Source: an uncultured archaeon
Lineage (GTDB): Archaea; Aenigmatarchaeota; Aenigmatarchaeia; CG10238-14; CAZWBF01
Length of the DNA stretch: 45,003 nucleotides
Direction: 5' to 3'
Assembly: GCA_964632185.1 (NCBI GenBank)
Contig: CAZWBF010000002.1
Coordinates: 1-45,003, forward strand
The position numbers and the translations under genes are program-made. Below, one piece after another: positions 4,433 to 31,759 of the stretch. Position 1 is the first letter of the stretch; every line of letters starts with the position of its first letter. The notes beneath the pieces are model-generated. The model had not been told where the DNA came from. It did no database searches and saw nothing but the letters and a program-made list of their open reading frames with translations.

Positions 4433-5491
4433 GTGAGTTCTGAAATTTTAGAACTTGAGCAAAAAGTATATTCTATATCTATTATATTAGATCCAGATAT
4501 TCTTGATCAATATAAAAAAATTTTGATTTTTTGTAAATCTGATGAAGAATTGAAAAAGTTAGAAAAAGTTTTATCATATGAAAAAAGTAAAGAAAATCTT
4601 GAAAATATTTATAAAAAGATTTTATCCATTTACAATTCTCATAAACGCATTCTTCTTCACTTTGAAAACAACATTTTAAAAATAGAAGGAATTTATCAAA
4701 ACTTGCTTAAAGAGTTTTCCAATGAAAATATTGAAAATTTTTATAGATATGCATCTGATTTTCATTTAAGCGTTAAAAAAATTTTTGATGTTAGAAGAAA
4801 TTTCTATTATTCAAAATTTAATGAGTTAAAAAATAATTTGAAAGAAAAAGTTGAGAGAGTTGAAAATTCTCCCTTTGTTAATTTAATTAAAACTGCTTCA
4901 GAAATTGAAAATAATATAAATGAGCTTAAAATAATGAGCTTAAGTGAAGATTTTGTCAATAAAAAAATTAAAAGCCTTTCTCCACTTCTTGAAAATATTG
5001 AAGAATTTGCTAGGAATGAAAATGATAAAGAGTTGTTAGTTGAAACTAGAAATTTAAGAAGGCGTCTAATTTCTATTAAAAATATAAATAAAGAGAATTT
5101 GGAAGATCTTGAAAATTATGGAAAATTTCTGAGAAAGATTGCTAGCGAGTATTTAAATAGCAAAAGAAAGGTAGAAGAAAATTTATTTGAAATTTCTATA
5201 GAAAGTGATGTTGAAACACTTGAAAGGCTAATAGATGAAATTCAACTCATTGACAAACCTTATGGCACTTGGGGATTGGTAAAGGACTTTCTCGAGAATT
5301 CAATAAAAGATTTGGATAGAATAGGTGAAAAAGATTTAGCTGAAGAAATGAGTGAACTTTACAAACTTTTACAAAAAATAAATGAAAAGACTTATCTACC
5401 AGATTCTTCAACAGAAAAAATTAAAAGCTTTTTTGATAAAATAATTTCAAAAATAGTAAAAAAATATATGGAATTAAAAAGTTTAGATTAG
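4433..5491 (+). CDS. hypothetical coiled-coil protein (352 aa, GTG start)
   Basis: Long K/E/N/L-rich ORF starting 22 nt after cdc6. No motif recognised. Confidence 0.45.
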   Translation: MSSEILELEQKVYSISIILDPDILDQYKKILIFCKSDEELKKLEKVLSYEKSKENLENIYKKILSIYNSHKRILLHFENNILKIEGIYQNLLKEFSNENIENFYRYASDFHLSVKKIFDVRRNFYYSKFNELKNNLKEKVERVENSPFVNLIKTASEIENNINELKIMSLSEDFVNKKIKSLSPLLENIEEFARNENDKELLVETRNLRRRLISIKNINKENLEDLENYGKFLRKIASEYLNSKRKVEENLFEISIESDVETLERLIDEIQLIDKPYGTWGLVKDFLENSIKDLDRIGEKDLAEEMSELYKLLQKINEKTYLPDSSTEKIKSFFDKIISKIVKKYMELKSLD

Positions 5492-13454: not shown

Positions 13455-14585
13455 TTATTCCTCTTCAAATTTCATTATCAAATCAAACATTCCAGTACCA
13501 CTAGGAACGACTTGACCTATCATCACATTTTCAAATATTCCATTAAAGTTATCAACTTCATTTTTTAATGATGCTCTAACCAAATGCTTTATAGTTTCTT
13601 CAAAACCAGCTCTTGCCAAAACAGAAACTTTGGAACCAGCAACACCATATCTACCTATAGGGCTAATCTTCCCTCTAAATGTCATTATATCTGCAACTAA
13701 AATTATATGCCTTAGATCAACATCTATTGCTTGTTGTTGAATTGTATTTAAAACTTCTTCTATTATTAAATTCCTTGCAGCTTCTATTCCAAAAATCTTT
13801 TCTATTTCATAAATGTTGTTTGATAAAACTTTATTTTCATCCACTTCCTTCAATTTCATAATTTCTTCTAAGTTGCTTCCAATTGTTTCAACTACCCATT
13901 CGTTATTCTCTTTCTTAACTAAAGCATTCTCTATTCCTTTAATTCCACTAATACTCAAATCCAAAACTTTTCTTTTCAATTTTTGAAGTTCAGTTATGCT
14001 AACCTCTTCTTTTGGTAAAATAACTATCAAATCTTTTCTACTTCTTACTTTCACGTCTTTTATTTCTTTTTTTATTTTTTCAATCACTGAGCTAGTTTTT
14101 CTTTTGTCAATTAATTCAACTTCTAAACAACCTTCACTCAAATTAATTGAAATTCCTGAAATTAAATGAATTAACTTTCTTTCAATTATTTTTTCAGCAA
14201 ATCGGGTTGCTTCTTTTTCAGTATTATACTCCTTTTTCAAAAATATAGTCATTGTTGAAATATTTGGCTCTTTTCTTGCGTCAAACAATTCAATTAATCT
14301 TGGTAATCCTTGGGTTACTTTTACACCAACTGTTCCTGCAACATGGTAAGTACGCATAGTCATTTGAGTACTTGGTTCAGAAATGCTTTGGGCTGCTATT
14401 ATTCCAATCGCTTCTCCAGGCTCAAAAGAACTCTTCAAATATTCTTTTTTTACCTCAGCTTCTAACTTTGATATTTCTTCCTTTTTTAATCTAAATTTTT
14501 CCGCAACTTTCAATATTTCTTTTCTAATATTTTCTGGAAGTTCAACTTCCAATTTTGAATATTCTTTTTGCAATATTTTCGACAT
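13455..14585 (-). CDS. rpoA2: DNA-directed RNA polymerase subunit A''
   Basis: 376 aa with [28 protein letters not shown] (trigger-loop region) and [19 protein letters not shown] lies upstream. Confidence 0.93.
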
Positions 14586-17500
14586 CTATACCCTCCTTTT
14601 TAATTTTGCTTGGGTCCAAATTATCTTCTCCAGCAGTAAATTGAATTATATTTTTACCAGAGTCCCTTACAGTTCCATCATACTCAACTTTTAAATCTTG
14701 GAGAGCTCCGATCAATCTTCTTTCCATATATCCAGAATGCCTAGTTCTTAAACTTTTATCCATTAAATTCTCTCTTGAATTCATAGCATCGAAGAAAAAT
14801 TCAAAAGGAGATAATCCTTGTCTGAAACCTTTTGGAACAAAACCTTTTGCCTCTAAACTTATATCACCAACTTTAAAATGAGGGAATGTTCTTCTATAAT
14901 AACCTCTTTTTATTCTTTCTTCCATTATCATTTCTTGTCCAATTAAAGTTGAAATTTGCATAAAGTTTACTATTCCTCCTCTTGCACCACTTAGCATCAT
15001 AGCTAAAACGTTATTAAACCTTATATTTTCAGAAAGTAATTCACCAACCCTAGTAACTAATGAGCTTATTTTCCTTTTAATTAAAGTTTCTAAAGTTTCT
15101 TCTAAAGTTCTACCAACCATAATTTTTAATTTTCCACTTTCATACTCGTTTATTAGTTCGTAAACCTCTTTTCTCGTTTTCTCTATTAAGCTATTAATTT
15201 CTTTTTTCAGATCCTCTGGTAAATCTTGATCAGCAATACTTATGCTAAATCCATAAAGAGTCAAAAATTCTATTCCTAATTTTGTTATTTTTTGTAGAAA
15301 ATCTTTAACAAATTCGCTACCATATAGCTTTTCCATTTCATCTATTATCTTACCACCCTCAGCACCAACTGCATTTTTATCAATTGCACCATATAACAAT
15401 TTTCCATCTTTTATTACAACATAAGTGTCAGATTCTAAAACATGTTTACATTTTTCTTTCTTGCATTTTCTACAACCAACATATGCTTTTGTTTTAAATT
15501 CTATGTTAAAATCTTTTGGTAAAAACAGGCTAAATATTTCTTTCCCAGTCATAAATGCTTTTTTTGGTATTTCCATATCTTTATCAACACTTCTTATCAA
15601 ATGAACAAACTCTTTTCTTGAAAATTTCTTTTGACCCAAAGTTAAAAGATATAGACCAGTTATATGGTCACGCATCGCACCAACTATTGGCCCTGAAAAC
15701 CTAGGACTTCTCAAATGTTTGATTACATTCATTAAAATTTTTGCTTCTGCTTGTGCCTCTTCAGTTTGCGGTATATGCAAATTCATTTCGTCTCCATCAA
15801 AATCTGCATTATAAGGAATGCAACTGCATAAATTCAATCTAAATGTTTTGAATGGCATTACTCTAACTTTATGTGCCATCATACTCATTCTATGCAGACT
15901 TGGTTGCCTATTGAATAAAGCTACATCTCCATTTATCAAATGCCTTTCAACTATATATCCAACTGTTATCTCTTTTGCTATCTCTTCCTTATTTTCTTCT
16001 GTTATCTTTTTTCTTCTTCCATCAGGCCTTATAACATAATTCGCACCAGGCCAAGTTTTTGGCCCATTTAATATTAAACTTTTTAAGAAATCTATATTGT
16101 TTTCATTTACTCTTACAGGAATAGTTAATTCCATTGCAATTCTTTCTGGCACACCTACTTCATCTATATCGATTAAAGGGTCTGGCGAAATAACTGTTCT
16201 GGCTGAAAAATTCACTCTTTTTCCAGCCAAGTTACCTCTAAATCTTCCTTCTTTTGTTTTTAATCTTTGAGATAAAGTTTTTAAAGCTCTTCCAGACCTA
16301 TGCCTAGCTGGAGGTACTCCTGTAAGTTCGTTATCAAAATAAGTTGCCACATGATATTGTAAAAGTTCCCAAAGGTCTTCTATTATGAAATCTGGTGCAC
16401 CCAACTCAATATTTTCCCTTAATCTATCGTTAATTCTAACAATATCAACTAACTTATGAGTTAAATCATCTTCTGACCTTTCTCCTGTTTCTAAAGTAAT
16501 TGAAGGCCTAACAGTTACAGGAGGAATTGGAAGTAAAGTTATTACAAGCCACTCAGGCCTAAATCCTTTAAGACCTAAAAGATTCAATTCTTCATCCTCA
16601 ATTTTTTCTAATCTTTCTCTTATCTGTATTTGGTTTAATATTTTATTTCCTTCTATTATTGTGTATGGCTTCAAAAATTTCAAGTTCTTTTGCTCAGCTT
16701 TACAGTACGGACACTTCTTTAAAACTTTTCTTATAGCTTCTTTAACCGAAATTTTTCCTTCTTTAAGTTTTTCAACAGTTTTTTCATCAAGTAACAATCT
16801 ACTACATTTCCTACAAAAACATTTTAAAAGAGTAAATATTGTTTTTGCATAATGAACATGAATTACTGGTTTTGTTAATTCTAAATAACCAAAATGGCCA
16901 TAACATTCACCAACTCCTCCTCCACAAGTTCTACATTTTATACCAGGATCGACAACCCCTAATCTAGGATCCATTAATCCTCCTTCGATTGGATAACCCT
17001 CTTGATCATATAAATCTATCTTTGTAATTTTTGCAGAGCTCATTTTCTTTACCATTTCTGGACTTAAAACAGTAAAAACAATTCTTTCAACTTTTGGCAT
17101 TTCTTCAGAAATAACTATTTTTGGATAAATTAGCATACTCTTTAATTCCTCAATCATTAGTTTGAAAGCGTAACTCATTTCAATAATCGAAATTTTTGAT
17201 TCACCACAAACTGGACAATAATATTTCTTTTTAATTTTATCATAAATTGCAAATAATCCACACTCATTACATATAGGAATAGCAGCTTTATCAGAACTAA
17301 ACCTTTCTTTCAAAACTAGAGAAGCGCCATGAGCAATTAAGCAATCTTTTTCCATTTCCCCTAATCTTAATCCTCCTTCTTTACTTCTTCCTTCTGTTGG
17401 TTGTTTAGTTAGTAAAGTTACTGGTCCTCTAGACCTCGCATGGATTTTATTCGAAACCAAATGATCAAGTTTTTGATAAAAGCAAATTCCTATGAAAGTA

Positions 17501-18888
17501 GTTTGGGGCATTCCTGTTCTTCCCTCATACATTGTTTCTGTTCCATCTTCACTATATCCAAATTCTTTCAATCTCTTTCTTAATTCATCTTCTTTTACAG
17601 GGTCAAATGGCTGTGAATAAATTATTTCCCCAGAAAGAGCTGCAACCTTTCCAGCCATAATTTCTAGTAATTGACCTACGGTCATTCGGGTTGGTAAGGA
17701 ATGTGGATTAAATAGTAAATCTGGTACAGTTCCCTCTTCAGTAAATGGTAAATCTTCTGCTGGGGCAATTAAACCTATTACTCCTTTTTGTCCATGTCTA
17801 GAAGCAAATTTATCCCCAATTTCTGGTATTTTCAAATCTCTTACAACAACTTTAACTAATTTTGTTCCATCAACTGTTTGCGTTATAAAAACTCTATCAA
17901 CAATTCCTTTATCACCATGTCTTAAAGTTACGGAAGTTTCTCTTATATTTTCAATTCCAGTAATAAATTGATCCATCGCACCAAGGAAGCGTAAAGGTGA
18001 AATTCTTCCTATCAAAACATCATCAGAATTTACTTTCGTCTCTGGATTTACAATTCCGTCTTCAGGTAAATGTTTATATGCATCTTCGCCAGCATAACCC
18101 CTTACTCCAGGCTTAGGAATACCGATTATGTCTTCTTGCCCGCCCATATACCTCTTTTCTTCAGCTTCGTAAGTTCTATACATTATGCTCCAGAATAAAC
18201 CTCTTTCTATTGAAGCCTTATTAAATACTAAAGCATCTTCCATATTATATCCTAAATAACTACCAAGTGCGATTACAACATTTGAACCTGCAGGATGTTC
18301 TTCTACCTTCAAAATTTTATGAGAAAATGTTTGTACGAGAGGGACTTGAGAATAAACTAAAATATTAGATTTTGTATCTACTCTTAGTAAAAAGTTAGAA
18401 GAAAAAACACCTATAGCTTGCCCATGCATTTTTGCACCATAATTTACTCTATCTCCTCTATCAAATTCTGCATAAGGAATATGACTACTAGAAAGACCTA
18501 AAATTAAAGAAGGATGAATTTCAAGATGAGTATGCTCATTTGTCAAATCTTCTTCTCTTAAAGCAATATATGCATTTTCCTCTTCTTCTGCATCTAAATA
18601 TTCAATTATTCCATTTTTTATTAAATCGTCCCATTTCCATTCTCCTCTCTTCAATTTTTCTATATGTTCCTCTTTTAATTTTGGCTTTCCATTTTCAACT
18701 ATTATTAAAGGTCTCCTAACTCTTCCAGATTCTGTTGAAATATTTATTATATCTAGATGCTTATGCCAAGCTATATTTACTTGGTCTGAGATTAAGCCTA
18801 ACCTTCTTCTTTCCCTTATAGTTTTAACTATTTTTTCTGGATTTTCCGTTTTTCCAATATATCTACCGTCTAAAAATATTGAAGTCAT
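14542..18888 (-). CDS. single ORF encoding RNA polymerase subunit B' (aa 1-596, nt 18888-17101) fused in frame to subunit A' (aa 597-1448, nt 17100-14542)
   Basis: The B' part carries [13 protein letters not shown], the [10 protein letters not shown]-type motif and a C-terminal Zn ribbon CNECG..CPVCG. The A' part carries a Zn site [32 protein letters not shown] and the catalytic [10 protein letters not shown]. The junction ...[24 protein letters not shown] has no stop codon. Confidence 0.9.
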
Positions 18889-20360
18889 TTCAATACCTCC
18901 ATTATATTTTTCAAACTTTTTTCATCTGCACCCTTCGTAACTTCAGCCATTAAAGCTAAATATTTTCTTAATCCAATAGTTGCACCTTCTGGAGTTTCAC
19001 TTGGACATAATTTACCCCAATGCGTAGGATGTAATTCCCTAGCTTCAAAATGTTCTTGCGTAGAAGTTAATGGTGATAAAACATTTCTCATATGAGTTAA
19101 TGTTTTTAAATAATTTGCTCTTTCCAATCTTTGACTTACACCAGTTCTTCCTCCAACCCATGTTCCTATGGCTAAAGCTGAAACAATTTGATTTGTTAAA
19201 ACGTTTGATTCAACTATTGCTTGTAAAGGTGGTAATCTTCCCCTTTTTGTTAGCTTTTGATAATTGTAAGTTATTCTAGTTATCAAACCCCATTTCCCAA
19301 GTAAAATTGATCTTAATAGAATTTCTAAAAGATCTCCAGCCAATCTTAATCTTTTATTAGAGTAATGGTCTAAATCATCTTCTTCAATCTTTCCCAAATG
19401 CAATTTAATTATTTTCTCTATTGCTTTACATAAAAATAATGCTTTTTCTAATCTGTTTGTTGAATCTTGGCCTAAATGAGGTAACAAATATCTATCTATT
19501 AAGCGGGTTGCTCTTTCGATTTGATATTCTTTTTGTGGAATTTTTATATGTCTACCAATAGCTTCTAAAGCTTCTTCTTGAGTTGTGACTTCGCATTCGT
19601 ATATATTCGAATAAAATTCTTCCAAAATTTCTTCATCTGTTGAAATTGCAGCAATTATTTCATTATCTTTTATCAATCCCAAAGCTTTGATTAATATTAT
19701 AATTGGTAATCTTGTAACATTTGCAAAACTTATAAAAATCATTCCATCATTCCTTCTTTCAATTAAATGTCTTTGAATATATCCTTCCTTTTCAGAATGA
19801 ATTCTTGCAATTTCGGTAATGCTACCAGTATCTTCTTTTGTGACAATTATTTTGTTTTGGGCAATTTCCTCAACCATTACCAAAATCCTTTCAGTTCCAT
19901 TTACTATGAAATATCCACCTGGGTCATCCGGGTCTTCACCCGCTTCAATTAGCTCATTCCTATCCATTTTGGATAGAGGACAAATCTTTGATTTAACCAT
20001 AACTGGCAAATCACCAAAATTAACCATAACACTCTCGCTTTCAATATTGTTAAGAATTGGTGTCATTTCAACAAACATTGGAGCAGCATAAGTTAAATTT
20101 CTTAATCTTGCTTCCATAGGTAAAATTTCTCTTACACTTCCATCAGCTTCTTTAATAGAAGGTCCACCTATCATAAACTTTCCAAGCTTTATTCTTAACT
20201 CTCCTATATCTGGCACTTCTGGTTTTATCTCTCCAATTTCCTTAAAAATTTTAGGAATCCTTCGAGTGATGAAATCATTGTAAGACTCTATTTGAAATCT
20301 AACTAATCCTTTTTCTTTAACAAAAGTGTTAAGTAACTCTAAAAATATTTTATTATTCAT
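18885..20360 (-). CDS. rpoB2: DNA-directed RNA polymerase subunit B'' (N-terminal half of split B)
   Basis: 491 aa with typical N-terminal segments of subunit B (SYNDFI, GYFIVNGTERIL, LSPLTSTQEHFEARELHPTHWG). It overlaps B' by ATGA. Confidence 0.93.
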   Translation of the reverse strand: MNNKIFLELLNTFVKEKGLVRFQIESYNDFITRRIPKIFKEIGEIKPEVPDIGELRIKLGKFMIGGPSIKEADGSVREILPMEARLRNLTYAAPMFVEMTPILNNIESESVMVNFGDLPVMVKSKICPLSKMDRNELIEAGEDPDDPGGYFIVNGTERILVMVEEIAQNKIIVTKEDTGSITEIARIHSEKEGYIQRHLIERRNDGMIFISFANVTRLPIIILIKALGLIKDNEIIAAISTDEEILEEFYSNIYECEVTTQEEALEAIGRHIKIPQKEYQIERATRLIDRYLLPHLGQDSTNRLEKALFLCKAIEKIIKLHLGKIEEDDLDHYSNKRLRLAGDLLEILLRSILLGKWGLITRITYNYQKLTKRGRLPPLQAIVESNVLTNQIVSALAIGTWVGGRTGVSQRLERANYLKTLTHMRNVLSPLTSTQEHFEARELHPTHWGKLCPSETPEGATIGLRKYLALMAEVTKGADEKSLKNIMEVLK

Positions 20361-20385
20361 CCAACACCTTTTTTAAATTTTTTAC

Positions 20386-20398
20386 CGAGCCGCCTATA
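20386..20398. repeat. GC-rich 13-mer CGAGCCGCCTATA, copy 1 (rpoB'' upstream region)
   Basis: Exact match to 39260-39272. Similarity extends to CGAGCCGCCTATA[G/T]TGT. Confidence 0.6.
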
Positions 20399-20446
20399 GT
20401 GTAAATATTTTACTTTTTATTGTTTTTAAACTTTTCGTTTATCACT

Positions 20447-20452
20447 AAAAAA
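20447..20452 (-). terminator. oligo-T tract immediately after tRNA-Asp
   Basis: The minus strand reads TTTTTT directly after the discriminator base. Oligo-T is the usual archaeal termination signal. Confidence 0.4.
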
Positions 20453-20542
20453 CGCCCCGAGCGGGATTCGAACCCGCGTCATTCGCCGGTTTAAACCTCA
20501 GGCGTGACAGGCCTGTATCCTAGGCCGCTAGACGATCGGGGC
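20453..20542 (-). tRNA. tRNA-Asp (GUC) with a ~16-17 nt insertion between the anticodon stem and the variable/T region; no encoded CCA
   Basis: Minus strand: GCCCCGA TC GTCT AGCGGCCTA GGAT A CAGGC CTGTCAC GCCTG [AGGTTTAAACCGGCGAA]TGAC GCGGG TTCGAAT CCCGC TCGGGGC G. Every arm is canonical except for 21 nt where 4-5 are expected. Confidence 0.75.
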
Positions 20543-20563
20543 TTAATTAAGATTAATAGAGAA

Positions 20564-20588
20564 TTTTATATTTAAAGTTTTTACCGGA
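20564..20588 (-). promoter_or_regulatory. candidate BRE/TATA promoter of tRNA-Asp
   Basis: The minus strand reads CCGGTAAAAAC TTTAAATATAAAA, centred about 29 nt upstream of the mature tRNA 5' end. Confidence 0.4.
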
Positions 20589-20635
20589 CCTCTACTTTGA
20601 AAAAAGTTATTATTTCTTATTAGGAACTAGATTGT

Positions 20636-21292
20636 ATGAAAGATGAAAAATTAGCCTATTGGATAGGAGTTGTACATGCTGATGGATCCATCGTAAAGCG
20701 CAGATTTAAGAATAGAATATGTTTACAAACACTGGTCTCTCTGCAAGTTTCACCAAAATCAAAAGAAATGCTTCTTAAGTTTAAAGAAATAAGTGAAGAA
20801 AAATTGGGAAGAAAAGTTAAAATTGTAAAATTAAAAACCAGGAACATTTTAATGTATCAGATAGGTATATCAGAATTCAGAGATAAGTTTGATGAATTAG
20901 GTTTAAAAGAGAAATATGTTATACCTAACTGGATTTTGAATAAAGATTCTCTGCTTGGCAGTTATTTAGCTGGAATAATAGATGGAGATGGAAATATCCG
21001 CATAAAAAGAAAAAAGTATCCACAATGTGTAATCAGAATAACTGGAAGTTTTTCGCTCTCTAAACTTTACAAATTAATCAAAAGGAGGTTAAAATGGAGT
21101 ATGCAATTTGTAAAAAGGCAAAGAGAAAGTAAACTTTGTGGGAGAAAAATTAAAGGAAAGTAGTATGAACTCGAATTTTATGTGTCAAATAAAAATCGTT
21201 TATTTATAGAAAAGTATGTCTTACCTCATTTAGCTATAACATATAAAAGAGTTGCATTAACAAACTTCATAAATAAGAGATTTGCTCAATGA
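20636..21292 (+). pseudogene. free-standing double-motif LAGLIDADG homing-endonuclease-like gene interrupted by an in-frame TAG at 21161-21163
   Basis: Motif 1 is LAYWIGVVHADGSI and motif 2 is LGSYLAGIIDGDGNI. The ORF stops at TAG after 175 codons, but the same frame continues for 42 codons (YELEFYVSNKNRLFIEKYVLPHLAITYKRVALTNFINKRFAQ) to a TGA at 21290-21292. That continuation would complete the second domain. Confidence 0.7.
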
Positions 21293-21427
21293 TAACACCT
21301 TTTGGATACTTCTTGTGCTACTGGTTCAGCTATTGGGAAAAAAGTAAGTAAGCTTCTCAGAGTTTTAGTAAATAGTTAAAAGTAGATTGAAGTGTTTCAA
21401 AGAAACTTTCCGAACGAAAGTAAAATA

Positions 21428-21545
21428 GTTGGCAGCGTCGTGAATTTCCCGTGGCATGCACCACAGTACTCTTCACATCGCGGGAAGGCTTAACTTCCGG
21501 GTTCGGAATGGGACCGGGTGTTTCCCCTCCGCTTTGGCCGCCAAC
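21428..21545 (-). rRNA. rrf: 5S rRNA
   Basis: The minus strand reads GTTGGCGGCCAAAGCGGAGGGGAAACACCCGGTCCCATTCCGAACCCGGAAGTTAAGCCTTCCCGCGATG...GCTGCCAAC. It has the universal CCGAAC...GAAGTTAAGC core and terminal helix I pairing, and it forms a GC-rich island in AT-rich DNA. Confidence 0.9.
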
Positions 21546-21616
21546 CAAATTTTAATAAGTAAAGTTATTATTTAAAGGTTTTGTTTGTTGAAACGTTTTC
21601 AGAAAAAGTTAAAAAG

Positions 21617-21750
21617 TCCCCGCCGGGAGATTTGAACTCCCAACCTTCCGGTATTAACCGAGCATCGGCTCCGAGCAAGTGCCAATGCACTCGCCTTTGG
21701 CCTCTCAATACCGATACAGCCGGACGCTCTACCAGTTGAGCTAGGCGGGG
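21617..21750 (-). tRNA. tRNA-Tyr (GUA) with a 61-nt intron in the anticodon loop; no encoded CCA
   Basis: Minus strand: CCCCGCC TA GCTC AACTGGTA GAGC G TCCGG CTGTAT[61 nt]A CCGGA AGGTT GGGAG TTCAAAT CTCCC GGCGGGG A. The C1:G72 pair plus A73 is the archaeal/eukaryal Tyr identity set. Confidence 0.75.
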
Positions 21751-26493: not shown

Positions 26494-28365
26494 CTATTTA
26501 CCCCAAGGAACAAAGATAGGCCTTTTAGACAAGTATTTTGGCAATGGAAGTTTTTTGAAAGGTTTACTTTCAACTTTACCCTTAATTTCCTTGATCAAAC
26601 TATTAAGATCCATTTTTACAATTCCTCCCCTTTCCCTTATTCTAACTGACAACTTATTTGACTTAACTTCCTCTTCTCCAACAACTATAATGTAAGGACA
26701 CCACGAAATTTCTGCATCTCTTACTTTCCTCTTCACACTTTCATTCCTATCATCAATGTCAACTCTTATATTTTCTTTTTCAATTCTATCAGCAATTTCC
26801 TCGCAGGCTTTAATATATTTCTCAGAAACAGGGATTAACCTTACTTGAGTTGGAGAAAGCCATAAAGGTAAAGAGGGTACTTTTCCACTTTTTTCCTTCA
26901 TATAAGCTTTTTCAAGTAAAGCATACATTACTCTTTCAATTGCTCCGCTTGGTGAACAATGCAAAATAAACGGATATTTCTTTTTCCCATCTTCATCAAT
27001 ATAAGTTATTCCATATCTTTCAGCATTTTCATGATCAATCTGAACTGTTGATAAGGCAGAAGCCTTGTCCAAGGCATCAACAAAATTAAACTCAAACTTA
27101 GGATCAAAATAGGCATATCTAAAATTCCACATTTCGATTAATACCGGTTTATTAATTATTTTCACAAGCGAAATGATAAACTCTTTATTTTCTTTCCAAA
27201 AATCTTCGGTAAATCTTATTGCTGTTTCTATGTCCTTTTCATCAAATCCAATTTCCTTTAAAACTTGCAAAGAAAACTTAAATTGATTTTTAAACTCGTT
27301 TTTTGCTTCATCCAAAGTTTTGCATAAAGTATGCATGTCCGGCATCGTAAATGTCCTTAATCTTTTTAGTCCAACCAACTCCCCACTTTTCTCCCTTCTA
27401 AAACTATACCTTGTCAACTCATACATTCTTAGTGGTAAATTTTTGTAAGAAATTTGCATATCTTTTTTAATTAAAAATTGGCCAAAACAAGCACTGAACC
27501 TCATAAAGTAATCTTTTTTACCACTTCTCAAAACATAATGCCTAGCTGGAAATCTATTTAAATAACTCACAAATGCTGGATGATTATAATCAAACATTAT
27601 TGGAGTTTCAACTTCCATTGCACCAAATCCTATAACTTTCCTCGTTACAAACTCTTCAAGCAAAGATTTAATTAATCTTCCTGCAGGATAATACCTCAAA
27701 TTACCAGGATCACTACCGCTCTCATAATCAGCAATTTCCAACTTTCTCATCAAAATTACATGCGGGGGTATTTTCTTAACAACTCTCGACTTTTCAATTT
27801 CATACTTCGCAAATTTTTCCAGGTTTTTATGTTTTGTGAAATCAAATTCTTTTACCGAAACTAAATTACCGTTTGGCTCTAAAATGTACCATTTTGATTT
27901 TACTTTTTTTTCTTCAATTTTTAAAGCCTTTGATACCTCTTCCCTTTCTTTTTCTTTAACTTCATATATCCTCAATTGCTCAGCCAAAGGATGACCTTTT
28001 AATTTTAAATGAAAAGATTTTGTCCAGCCAAAAGGTGCTCTGTAAGTTTCTATTCCATTTTTCTTTGCAAATTCTTCCATCTTTTTCAAAATTTTTAGTG
28101 CAGTATTTGGTTTAGCAAGCTGATTACTTAAATGCGCAAATGGATAAATTAAAATTTTATTTATTTTCAAAATTTTCAAAAAGTCTTTTATCTCTTTGAT
28201 TGCTTTTTCTGCAACTTTCTCATCATCGTTTTTTTCAATAGAAACAAAAAGAACTAATATTTCTTCAAACCTAAATTTCTTTTTCTCTGTTTCTTCTGCA
28301 ATCTCAATTTCTTTTTCCACTGGCTCAAATTCTATGAAGTCAACATGTTGCTGCAATATTCTCAT
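26494..28365 (-). CDS. thrS: threonyl-tRNA synthetase (archaeal type with N-terminal editing domain)
   Basis: 623 aa with class II motifs (RLRTFTMPDMH, FILHCSPSGAIERVMYALLE) and a C-terminal anticodon-binding domain. The N-terminus MRILQQHVDFIEFEP is typical of the archaeal editing domain. Confidence 0.93.
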   Translation of the reverse strand: MRILQQHVDFIEFEPVEKEIEIAEETEKKKFRFEEILVLFVSIEKNDDEKVAEKAIKEIKDFLKILKINKILIYPFAHLSNQLAKPNTALKILKKMEEFAKKNGIETYRAPFGWTKSFHLKLKGHPLAEQLRIYEVKEKEREEVSKALKIEEKKVKSKWYILEPNGNLVSVKEFDFTKHKNLEKFAKYEIEKSRVVKKIPPHVILMRKLEIADYESGSDPGNLRYYPAGRLIKSLLEEFVTRKVIGFGAMEVETPIMFDYNHPAFVSYLNRFPARHYVLRSGKKDYFMRFSACFGQFLIKKDMQISYKNLPLRMYELTRYSFRREKSGELVGLKRLRTFTMPDMHTLCKTLDEAKNEFKNQFKFSLQVLKEIGFDEKDIETAIRFTEDFWKENKEFIISLVKIINKPVLIEMWNFRYAYFDPKFEFNFVDALDKASALSTVQIDHENAERYGITYIDEDGKKKYPFILHCSPSGAIERVMYALLEKAYMKEKSGKVPSLPLWLSPTQVRLIPVSEKYIKACEEIADRIEKENIRVDIDDRNESVKRKVRDAEISWCPYIIVVGEEEVKSNKLSVRIRERGGIVKMDLNSLIKEIKGKVESKPFKKLPLPKYLSKRPIFVPWGK

Positions 28366-30343: not shown

Positions 30344-31759
30344 ATGAAAAAATATTCGCTGATTTTTAGAGAAGTTTTAAAAGAAATTAAGCCGTCAAAA
30401 GAGCAAGAAGTGCATCTTAAAAGAGTTGCAAACAAGGCTTTAAAACTTGTTAAGGCTGAAGCGAAAAAATATAAAGCAAAGGCTATTTTAGCTGGCTCTA
30501 TAACAAGAAATACTTGGCTTCCTGACAAGCTAGAATTTGATATTTTTATTATGTTTCCAGAGGAAATGAAAGAAAAGAGAATGGAAAATTTGGGTTTAAG
30601 AATAGGTAAAAAGGTTGTGAGAAAATTGAAAGGTACTTTTAAAATCGAATATGCAGAACATCCTTATGTTTCTGGTAATGTAGATGGAATAGATATTGAT
30701 ATTGTACCTTGCTATGAGCTAAAAAGTTTGGAGAAAATAAAGTCTGCAGTGGATAGAACCCCTTTCCATGTTCGATATCTAGAAAAAAATTTTAAAAAAG
30801 CTATGAGTAACGAGGTTAGATTATTAAAGCAGTTTTTAAAAGCAAATGAAATTTATGGTGCTGACGCTAAAACTCAAGGATTTTCTGGTTATAGCTGTGA
30901 ACTTTTAATAATAAAGTATAAAAAATTCTTAAATCTTTTAAAAGAAGCTGTAAAGTGGAATCCTGGAGAAATAATCGATATAGAAAAATATTATACAAAA
31001 AAAGATTTTGAAAAATTAAAAATGATGTTTAAAAACCAGCCTCTCATTTTAATAGATCCTGTTGATAAAAATAGAAATACAGCTGCTGCTCTTTCACCCA
31101 GAAACTTCTTTCTATTTAAAAAATTAGCAAAGGCATTTCTTAAAAATCCTAGCAATAAATTCTTCTTTCCGAAAGAAATTAAGCCTATGAGAGAGGAAGA
31201 TTATATTAAAAAGTTAAGAAAGAGAGAAACAGAAATTATAGTTTTAAAATTTGAAAAGCCTGATGTTATTGAAGATATTCTCTGGCCTCAACTAACAAAA
31301 TTTGCAGATAGAGTTTGCTCCATTTTGAAAGAATATGATTTTAAGGTAATGAAAAAAGCAGTTTTTGCAGATGAAGAATTTTGCTATGTTTTGTTTGAAT
31401 TTGAAATTTGGAAATTGCCAGAAGTGGAAAAAAGAGTTGGACCAATAATTTTTGATTTAAAAGATTCAAAGAATTTTTTGGAAAAGTATAAAGAGGATAC
31501 AATTAATGGTCCATATGTTGAGGGAATAAGATGGGTTGTTGAAACAAAAAGAAGATTTTTAACTGCAAAAGAAAAGCTTATTGATAGTTTAAGTAAATCA
31601 TTTGAAATTTTAGTGGCTAAAGGTATTCCAAATTATATAGCTGAAAAATTAGCTAAAGGCTTTGATATATTTGCTGGTAGTGAAGTTATTTTACTTTTGA
31701 AAAATAGAAAATTTGCTATCTTCTTAAAAAAATATTTCACAAAAGAAAAATTAATATAG
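30344..31759 (+). CDS. cca: CCA-adding enzyme (class I tRNA nucleotidyltransferase)
   Basis: 471 aa with GSITRNTWLPDKLEFDIFIMF (G[SG]..R + DxD), DIVPCY and RTPFHVRYL, which are archaeal class I signatures. Confidence 0.9.
   Translation: MKKYSLIFREVLKEIKPSKEQEVHLKRVANKALKLVKAEAKKYKAKAILAGSITRNTWLPDKLEFDIFIMFPEEMKEKRMENLGLRIGKKVVRKLKGTFKIEYAEHPYVSGNVDGIDIDIVPCYELKSLEKIKSAVDRTPFHVRYLEKNFKKAMSNEVRLLKQFLKANEIYGADAKTQGFSGYSCELLIIKYKKFLNLLKEAVKWNPGEIIDIEKYYTKKDFEKLKMMFKNQPLILIDPVDKNRNTAAALSPRNFFLFKKLAKAFLKNPSNKFFFPKEIKPMREEDYIKKLRKRETEIIVLKFEKPDVIEDILWPQLTKFADRVCSILKEYDFKVMKKAVFADEEFCYVLFEFEIWKLPEVEKRVGPIIFDLKDSKNFLEKYKEDTINGPYVEGIRWVVETKRRFLTAKEKLIDSLSKSFEILVAKGIPNYIAEKLAKGFDIFAGSEVILLLKNRKFAIFLKKYFTKEKLI

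Follow-up and report, generated by a model that had tools for sequence, protein, structure and literature searches.

A free-standing LAGLIDADG endonuclease gene between the 5S rRNA and tRNA-Asp genes of an uncultured archaeon, probably a selfish element, segregates as intact and TAG-interrupted alleles

Why is a LAGLIDADG endonuclease gene of an uncultured member of the Aenigmatarchaeota cut by an in-frame TAG, when its frame stays open beyond the stop for another 42 codons? The gene is located in the window, i.e. the stretch of 45,003 nucleotides of contig CAZWBF010000002.1 (assembly GCA_964632185.1) that we analyzed, and lies free between the genes for tRNA-Asp and 5S rRNA. An earlier note, made from the letters of the sequence, had described a two-motif LAGLIDADG frame interrupted by TAG at 21161-21163 and then open for 42 codons to a TGA, and had proposed that it was either recently inactivated or expressed by read-through of the stop codon, possibly as a relic of mobile-intron activity or of domestication. 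Reading of the frame and RNA-gene predictions bore out the description of the gene and of its two flanks; a tRNA-Tyr gene was found in addition. The explanation we favor, to which we assign a probability of a little over 80%, is that of a selfish, free-standing LAGLIDADG endonuclease gene in the 5S-tRNA-Asp spacer, which spread recently, then entered decay and was inactivated by a change of TGG to TAG, with no recoding of the stop codon.

The truncated frame (20636-21163, plus strand) consists of 175 codons and the TAG. It encodes a first LAGLIDADG domain and the first three quarters of a second one, including both motifs, LAYWIGVVHADGS at residues 6 to 18 and YLAGIIDGDGN at residues 110 to 120, with the catalytic residues Asp16 and Asp118. 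The TAG at 21161-21163 is codon 176. Beyond it the stranded 3' part of the gene (21164-21292, plus strand) holds the last 42 codons and the TGA at 21290-21292 and would provide the rest of the last β-strand of domain 2 as well as two C-terminal helices. The protein matched the Pfam family LAGLIDADG_3 with an E-value of 2e-6 and a score of 28 bits, i.e. above the cut-off of 22.5, which upholds the assignment made earlier. The best sequence match in the PDB was the I-DmoI half of the E-DreI chimera (1mow), where Asp16 aligns to the aspartate of the first LAGLIDADG motif of I-DmoI.

A search of a large protein collection yielded 34 homologues of 215 to 267 amino acids, which share 35 to 47% identity with the 218-amino-acid conceptual product and cover 96 to 100% of it. 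In the family alignment no variation is seen at D116, G117, D118 and G119; for D16 and G17 conservation is at least 90%. The segment downstream of the stop bears the family block LEFxVSxKN as well as P197 and K204, all of which the window copy has retained: the near-invariant residues L179, E180, F181, S184, K186, N187, P197 and K204 are in place, F181, P197 and K204 being invariant in the family. The 42 codons beyond the TAG align with at least 30 homologues, and the C-termini of about 70 relatives are homologous to them. Thus the domain is not complete at residue 175, and the downstream codons are its real end, as had been suggested. At the position of the stop tryptophan is the majority residue among the homologues, and its codon TGG is one transition away from TAG.

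The AlphaFold2 model of the read-through sequence, computed with the homologue alignment, had a predicted local distance difference test score (pLDDT) of 93.5 and a predicted template modeling score (pTM) of 0.90. It is made up of two α-β-β-α-β-β-α domains in tandem, as in the DNA-binding β-saddle of two-domain LAGLIDADG endonucleases. The elements of domain 1 are a helix at 4-16, strands at 17-23 and 30-38, a helix at 40-57, a strand at 72-77 and a helix at 79-88; those of domain 2 are a helix at 104-118, strands at 119-124 and 130-137, a helix at 142-152, strands at 156-167 and 170-183 and the helices 188-198 and 202-216. In the model residue 176 is situated inside the last strand of domain 2 (170-183), and both final helices come after it. 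A Foldseek comparison with the PDB returned LAGLIDADG endonucleases and maturases for all top matches, with target-normalized TM-scores of 0.62 to 0.69 for the I-DmoI chains. Judged by sequence and predicted structure, the window gene is a broken allele of an I-DmoI-like two-domain LAGLIDADG homing endonuclease. According to the model the 175-amino-acid product is most likely non-functional, because half of the last β-strand of domain 2 and both closing helices are lost. Compared to its family the window copy shows 5 deviations at 45 highly conserved columns (median 2) and a terminal branch of 1.67 (median 0.97), a modest excess of divergence that we did not use as a main argument.

The intact allele was found in the same species. 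We aligned to the window 18 public same-species contigs that cover the locus and had been assembled independently. At base 21162, which is A in the window, nine carry A and consequently TAG, and nine carry G and consequently TGG for tryptophan. The decisive base is the middle A at 21162; the earlier note was right about the TAG at 21161-21163, but had singled out 21161 for verification. Because nine further independently assembled contigs carry the TAG, an error of assembly is excluded. The 90%-identity cluster of the 175-amino-acid product includes the exact 218-amino-acid sequence with Trp176, which is encoded on seven contigs from other samples; in other words, seven of the nine TGG contigs specify an otherwise identical protein. 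The neighborhood of the intact allele is the same as in the window, namely rpoB', the endonuclease gene, a gene for a DUF4139-like membrane protein, a nitroreductase and a DNA ligase. Seven TAG contigs from different assemblies encode the exact 175-amino-acid product and match the window at each of the 657 nucleotides (nt) of the gene; two more TAG contigs exist besides. The nine TAG contigs stem from SRR7051243, SRR7051244, SRR7051245, SRR7051295, JGI 3300021492 and 3300021469, ERZ27248139, ERZ27248285 and ERZ27248160, the nine TGG contigs from SRR6301444, JGI 3300021499, ERZ23491060, ERZ23491052, ERZ2433807, ERZ27248120, ERZ27247988, ERZ27248101 and ERZ27227320. Thus the TAG is a young, segregating loss-of-function allele, in which a G-to-A transition at 21162 turned Trp176 into a stop. 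The suggestion of a recently inactivated homing endonuclease is strongly supported by these data. The frame downstream of the stop is open because the mutation is young, and since the intact allele coexists with the broken one, read-through is not needed as an explanation.

The other variants of the gene among these contigs are G58K together with a synonymous change next to it (20806-20808), another synonymous change in K60 (20815), D83E (20884), V195G (21219) and R151G (21086), the last of which is present on both TAG and TGG backgrounds. One TAG contig (L124, ena:ERZ27248160 k141_36528) carries G58K and in addition a deletion of one nucleotide in codon 71 (20847) that shifts the frame. The changes in this contig, GGG to AAA, A to G and the single-nucleotide deletion, are tightly clustered within 42 nt (20806-20847) and look as if they arose in one mutational event that hit several nucleotides, or else as a small patch of conversion. 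In total the endonuclease gene has 2 synonymous, 4 non-synonymous and 2 loss-of-function variants as against 52 synonymous and 3 non-synonymous ones in the adjoining rpoB genes (Fisher p = 3e-5). The endonuclease gene is under relaxed selection.

We considered whether the truncated 175-amino-acid protein is itself functional, e.g. as a DNA-binding protein, a nickase or a regulator, so that the TAG allele is kept by selection. The TAG allele is indeed common, with 9 of 18 contigs plus the window, it occurs in several samples and flank haplotypes, and both catalytic aspartates are encoded upstream of the stop. On the other hand, the stop interrupts the final strand of domain 2, and two packing helices are lost with it, in a region that is strongly conserved in the family. 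Furthermore, one TAG allele is also frameshifted at codon 71, and the variants of the gene are mostly non-synonymous or loss-of-function. We therefore regard a functional short protein as quite unlikely.

Next in standing is programmed or leaky read-through of the TAG, which would supply a low dose of the full 218-amino-acid endonuclease and might in this way limit its toxicity. The open downstream codons with all conserved residues intact would agree with this view, and the absence of synonymous variation in the gene across strains is readable as constraint. Yet TAG is a normal stop throughout the genome. The window assembly comprises 0.67 Mb with about 30% G+C and is 89% complete. Among its open reading frames (ORFs) of at least 150 amino acids 324 end with TAA, 128 with TGA and 59 with TAG, i.e. 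59 of 511 use TAG. Long frames were followed by at least 40 open codons in 9 of 78 cases after TAG (11.5%), 49 of 412 after TAA (11.9%) and 20 of 184 after TGA (10.9%). In the window itself the TAG codons at 5491, 26494-26496 and 31757-31759 do terminate long ORFs, as had been pointed out. None of the 35 tRNAs predicted in the 89% of the genome that is assembled has a CUA anticodon, and no PylS above the cut-off was present there, the best PylS_Cterm match having 19.8 bits compared to a cut-off of 178. Stop-codon usage and the lack of a tRNA-CUA and of a PylS match above cut-off led us to reject global reassignment of TAG, a suppressor tRNA and pyrrolysine as candidates; the earlier argument against global reassignment holds.

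Three further observations speak against read-through at this gene. The intact TGG allele coexists, and the youth of the mutation accounts for the open downstream frame. The TAG allele of L124 has since been frameshifted. Finally, a member of the family named P0034 (9 contigs; L110:1501-2240, ena:ERZ27237584 k141_68176) has an in-frame TAA ten residues ahead of where the window TAG would fall; homologous sequence goes on in frame beyond the TAA, and its tail overlaps a convergent tRNA-His gene. Because P0034 is broken by TAA, nonsense decay in the family is not specific to TAG. The context AAG-TAG-TAT is not a read-through context known to us. Taken together, expression by read-through lacks support and is in our view very unlikely, and no stop-codon recoding is involved at the window gene.

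The recent spread that is part of the preferred reading is deduced from the sequence differences around the locus. Four TGG contigs (L117, L119, L120 and L126) form one strain group with an overall divergence of about 1.2% from the window. In the flanks the divergence of this group is about 1.3 to 1.6%, with 24 differences in 1476 nt of rpoB' and 22 in 1467 nt of the membrane protein gene. Within a tract from 20269 to 21413, which spans the region upstream of rpoB', the tRNA-Asp gene, the endonuclease gene in full and the greater part of the adjoining 134-nt gap, 21162 is the only position at which the strain group departs from the window, apart from two additional non-synonymous changes in L126. 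At the flank rate 8.8 to 10.7 differences are expected in the 657-nt gene (Poisson P 0.0003 to 0.0015). We infer that this is the tract of a recent gene conversion or sweep centered on the endonuclease gene, as would result from homing with co-conversion of the flanks. In sample ERZ27247988 one contig (L132) ends at 20541, the 5' end of the tRNA-Asp gene, and another (L121) starts at 20593, 44 nt before the ATG of the endonuclease gene. This break could be due to differences between strains at the left edge of the element, or coverage may just have been low.

Several points weigh against this interpretation. Because single-nucleotide polymorphisms are clustered, the Poisson P values are optimistic. 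Ordinary homologous recombination or an unrelated sweep could yield the same low-divergence tract, and the zero synonymous differences in the gene between the strain groups would also fit continued constraint. The presence of R151G on both backgrounds means that recombination or recurrent mutation has occurred, therefore the TAG could have arisen more than once. In the species we encountered no allele without the gene: every contig that reaches the site carries it, including those retrieved by a look-up of contigs with an identical RpoB' N-terminal protein, and a scan of metagenomes with the 3' end of the 5S gene returned only gene-bearing contigs. Nor could the insertion point or recognition site be derived from gene-less relatives, whose A/T-rich spacers do not align and whose 5S genes are at most 84% identical to that of the window.

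The spacer between the 5S and tRNA-Asp genes (20543-21426) has a length of 884 nt, made up of 93 nt, the 657-nt endonuclease gene and 134 nt. The tRNA-Asp(GTC) gene of 90 nt (20453-20542), the 5S rRNA gene (21427-21545) and the tRNA-Tyr(GTA) gene with an intron of 61 nt (21616-21750) are all on the minus strand, and the endonuclease gene is antisense to all three. In gene-less relatives tRNA-Asp is found downstream of 5S on the same strand; the tRNA-Tyr gene upstream of 5S is part of the conserved tRNA-Tyr/5S/tRNA-Asp layout of the order. The 5S gene is the only one of the genome and is full length, uninterrupted and without an insert. With its own start and stop between host genes and with both adjoining RNA genes complete, the endonuclease gene is free-standing. 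A permissive Rfam scan of 20543-21426 and local alignments with 5S, tRNA-Asp and tRNA-Tyr, none of which scored above shuffled sequences, revealed no 5S or tRNA stub in the two gaps around the gene; the best near-match was that of 20583-20595 to the D-arm of tRNA-Tyr with 12 of 13 positions, which is borderline and does not surpass the best shuffle. Terminal or flanking repeats of the element were confined to short A/T-rich ones at chance level, except for a promoter-like box shared by two of the RNA genes. This A/T-rich box, AATTTTATATTTAAAGTTTTT, is located at 20562-20582, 17 to 40 nt upstream of the 5' end of tRNA-Asp and 54 to 74 nt upstream of the endonuclease ATG, and a second, similar one at 21562-21582, 17 to 40 nt upstream of the 5' end of 5S. 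Read on the minus strand the two boxes are AAAAACTTTAAATATAAAATT on the tRNA-Asp side and AAAACCTTTAAATAATAACTT on the 5S side. They are probably separate archaeal promoters of the tRNA-Asp and 5S genes with a B recognition element (BRE) and TATA box, and the box on the tRNA-Asp side may also be the promoter for the endonuclease gene. In the rpoB region the gene downstream of the N-terminal part of rpoB' (14542-18888, minus strand) is called as one product of 1448 amino acids with Rpb2 and Rpb1 domains, i.e. a B'-A' fusion.

How widespread is this arrangement? The order of the window archaeon is represented by 61 genomes, 58 of which have a 5S gene (57 in single copy), and we examined the layout of 34 5S loci. 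In 13 of these tRNA-Asp is located 5 to 106 nt downstream of 5S, mostly 35 to 106 nt, often with tRNA-Tyr upstream. The usual and ancestral layout of the order is a 5S gene followed after 35 to 106 nt by tRNA-Asp. An endonuclease gene of the family adjoins 5S in only 6 of the 58 genomes, namely that of the window, G027, G036, G042, G057 and G034. G027 has the same arrangement as the window, i.e. 5S, antisense gene and tRNA-Asp, and its spacer of 884 nt equals that of the window to within 1 nt. The copy of G034 is fragmentary and consists of two out-of-frame pieces. In the 5S-adjacent copies of the relatives the stop codon is 0 to 11 nt from the 3' end of 5S, compared to the gap of 134 nt in the window. 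Copies arranged tail to tail with an adjacent 5S gene are present in Aenigmatarchaeota.

A search with a hidden Markov model of the family in six-frame translations did not detect degenerate remnants of the gene in the other enlarged 5S-tRNA-Asp spacers of the order. These spacers hold different genes, encoding a DUF123 protein, a Pterin_4a protein and an AAA_17 protein. The DUF123 gene (132 to 134 amino acids, PF01986, E-value 3e-28) is antisense to the RNA genes and enlarges the spacer to 444 to 622 nt in three genomes that belong to a different genus of this order (L090 of G056, L096 of G005 and L097 of G038), where it is located 4 to 169 nt past the 3' end of 5S. DUF123 is a member of the GIY-YIG nuclease clan. 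Therefore a second, unrelated nuclease-like gene uses the same 5S-tRNA-Asp spacer. The 5S gene beside the fragmentary copy of G034 (L008, G034:C8, 1367-1503) is 137 nt long, with 22 nt, taagatatgatacatctgagga, inserted behind about position 37 within the conserved CCCA/TTCCGAAC region. Over-long 5S genes of 138 to 149 nt were also seen in G018, G058 and L059.

With one genome per species scanned, the family was represented by 40 loci in Aenigmatarchaeota, Woesearchaeota, Nanoarchaeota, Micrarchaeota, a Hadarchaeum and unclassified archaea. RNA genes were predicted around them with Rfam and ARAGORN. Nineteen of 39 usable copies are within 100 nt of an RNA gene versus 7.6% of ordinary ORFs of the window genome (binomial p = 7.5e-12). 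The neighbor is 5S in six cases, otherwise tRNAs for His, Arg, Val, Trp, Phe, Pro and others; the signal recognition particle RNA was nearby once. The final codons of the ORF often run into the RNA gene, and the orientation relative to it varies. In a maximum-likelihood tree of 40 sequences with unresolved deep branches, the copies beside 5S fall into more than one clade; their distribution needs 5 changes, the same as with shuffled labels. Thus the family is a DPANN-wide group of free-standing LAGLIDADG genes, about half of which are beside tRNA or 5S genes. The patchy distribution together with the conserved catalytic residues and the recurrent decay leads us to consider the gene a selfish homing endonuclease gene and not a domesticated protein.

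LAGLIDADG proteins have been recruited as maturases and as the regulator WhiA (PMC3384342). By analogy the gene could be a domesticated host protein that serves the neighboring RNA genes, e.g. in processing or transcription of 5S and tRNAs, and was lost in some strains. The consistent proximity of family members to RNA genes would agree with such a role. Yet only 6 of the 58 5S loci of the order have the gene, the distribution of the family across phyla is patchy, and the 5S-adjacent copies are scattered in the tree of 40 members. The catalytic acids are kept across the family, and the orientation relative to the RNA gene is not fixed. In addition, loss-of-function alleles are at roughly half frequency in the species, with 2 synonymous versus 6 damaging variants. 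Domestication is therefore highly improbable.

Intron-borne copies were looked for in the rRNA genes of the assembly, as had been proposed, and no homologue was found in them; the assembly has no 16S gene, and its piece of 23S detected by Infernal (C39:3202-5026) covers model positions 16 to 1783 only. On C63 blastn gave a short match to the 3' portion of 23S. The only other LAGLIDADG ORF of the genome is a distant one on C15 (L002:1489-2145, plus strand), which is intact, encodes 218 amino acids and is 25% identical to the window gene. It is free-standing and abuts an RNA gene as well, running about 80 nt into an intron-bearing tRNA-His gene (L002:2066-2186, plus strand). According to ARAGORN about 22 of the 35 tRNA genes of the window genome contain introns of up to 64 nt, some of them at non-canonical positions. 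That the ORF once resided in a bulge-helix-bulge intron of an rRNA gene and was left stranded beside 5S has the slightest chance of all. It would accord with the rRNA introns that encode all characterized archaeal non-intein LAGLIDADG enzymes known to us (PMC2602781), and the missing 16S and partial 23S genes leave room for intron copies. But the gene runs antisense to the RNA genes on either side, 5S is intact and not interrupted, and the gaps are free of rRNA and tRNA fragments. Furthermore, the one additional LAGLIDADG ORF of the assembly is the distant one beside tRNA-His, and some 40 relatives are likewise free-standing. Thus neither the relic of mobile-intron activity nor the domestication brought up by the earlier note finds support in an antisense gene of a free-standing family that is sporadic in the order and decaying.

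For the selfish, free-standing gene that we favor the following life cycle can be envisaged. An insertion between the 5S terminator and the tRNA-Asp promoter would be cheap for the host, because the RNA genes would keep their own promoters. In genomes without the element the intact enzyme would cut the empty 5S-tRNA-Asp junction or a conserved RNA-gene sequence nearby, and repair of the cut would copy the endonuclease gene into the spacer. By homing or gene conversion the element would have spread recently through the species, to be present now in every contig that reaches the site. Once all sites are occupied there would be nothing left to cut, selection on the enzyme would lapse, and mutations like that of TGG to TAG could drift. 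On this account loss-of-function alleles accumulate because empty targets are no longer available. We would give even odds to a more far-reaching proposal, namely that the family is an apparently undescribed class of archaeal mobile elements, made up of free-standing LAGLIDADG genes that home into short 5S and tRNA spacers across DPANN and Hadarchaeota, that the species affords a snapshot of the whole homing cycle with a fresh sweep followed by nonsense and frameshift decay, and that the intact allele is active on the empty 5S-tRNA-Asp junction.

For annotation the locus is a pseudogene allele of a homing endonuclease gene, neither a recoded gene nor the gene of a 175-amino-acid protein, and nothing here suggests an altered genetic code in Aenigmatarchaeota. 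On its own the window copy is an ordinary young pseudogene allele; the interest is in the niche of the family and in the clean snapshot of intact and broken alleles with a low-divergence tract. The latter amounts to population evidence for mobility and selfishness of the family, where the element is younger than its flanks and decays once all sites are occupied. The intact allele is a candidate for the biochemical definition of the target of the family. In addition, the enzymes could be of use as compact (218 amino acids), presumably monomeric scaffolds for meganucleases that come from AT-rich genomes of mesophiles.

The known LAGLIDADG enzymes of archaea are encoded in rRNA introns and inteins, and a large free-standing family in 5S and tRNA spacers is apparently undescribed. 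Full-text literature searches did not turn up a description of free-standing LAGLIDADG genes in archaea or DPANN or beside 5S or tRNA genes. A survey of bacteria of the candidate phyla radiation (CPR) did not encounter insertions in 5S genes, and its mention of archaeal LAGLIDADG_3 proteins is a passing one.

Among known enzymes the closest counterpart is I-DmoI from the 23S rRNA intron of Desulfurococcus mobilis. Like the conceptual window protein it is about 190 to 220 amino acids long, has two LAGLIDADG motifs each with a catalytic acid and comes from an archaeal host, and the pseudo-dimeric α-β-β-α-β-β-α fold predicted for the window protein is the same. Yet sequence identity is about 15%, and I-DmoI is encoded in an intron, whereas the window gene is stand-alone, antisense to the RNA genes and broken. 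In contrast to enzymes of the I-DmoI/I-PorI type, the window ORF is not inside a bulge-helix-bulge intron of an rRNA gene.

In its setting the window gene resembles that of SegB, a free-standing GIY-YIG homing endonuclease in the tRNA gene cluster of phage T4 (PMC2330249). Both genes are free-standing between small RNA genes. SegB spreads by cleaving genomes without it, whereby flanking markers are co-converted, and the low-divergence tract around the window gene resembles such a co-conversion tract. However, SegB is a GIY-YIG and not a LAGLIDADG enzyme, it belongs to a phage and not to a cellular chromosome, and its homing has been demonstrated by experiment, while that of the window gene is deduced from sequence comparison.

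The domesticated LAGLIDADG proteins, i.e. WhiA, HO and the maturases, are set apart from the window gene by stable vertical inheritance and purifying selection.

Finally, the state of the gene in the species fits a cycle of homing endonucleases, in which invasion is followed by fixation, degeneration and loss, as was reportedly put forward by Goddard and Burt in 1999 for the yeast omega element. In the species the window element has gone to fixation at its site, intact alleles coexist with nonsense and frameshift alleles, and the variants are mostly damaging. Among related genomes the element is patchy, with one fragmentary copy in G034. Unlike the yeast element, ours is a free-standing gene and not an intron ORF, in one uncultivated archaeal population that we see at the stages of fixation and decay.

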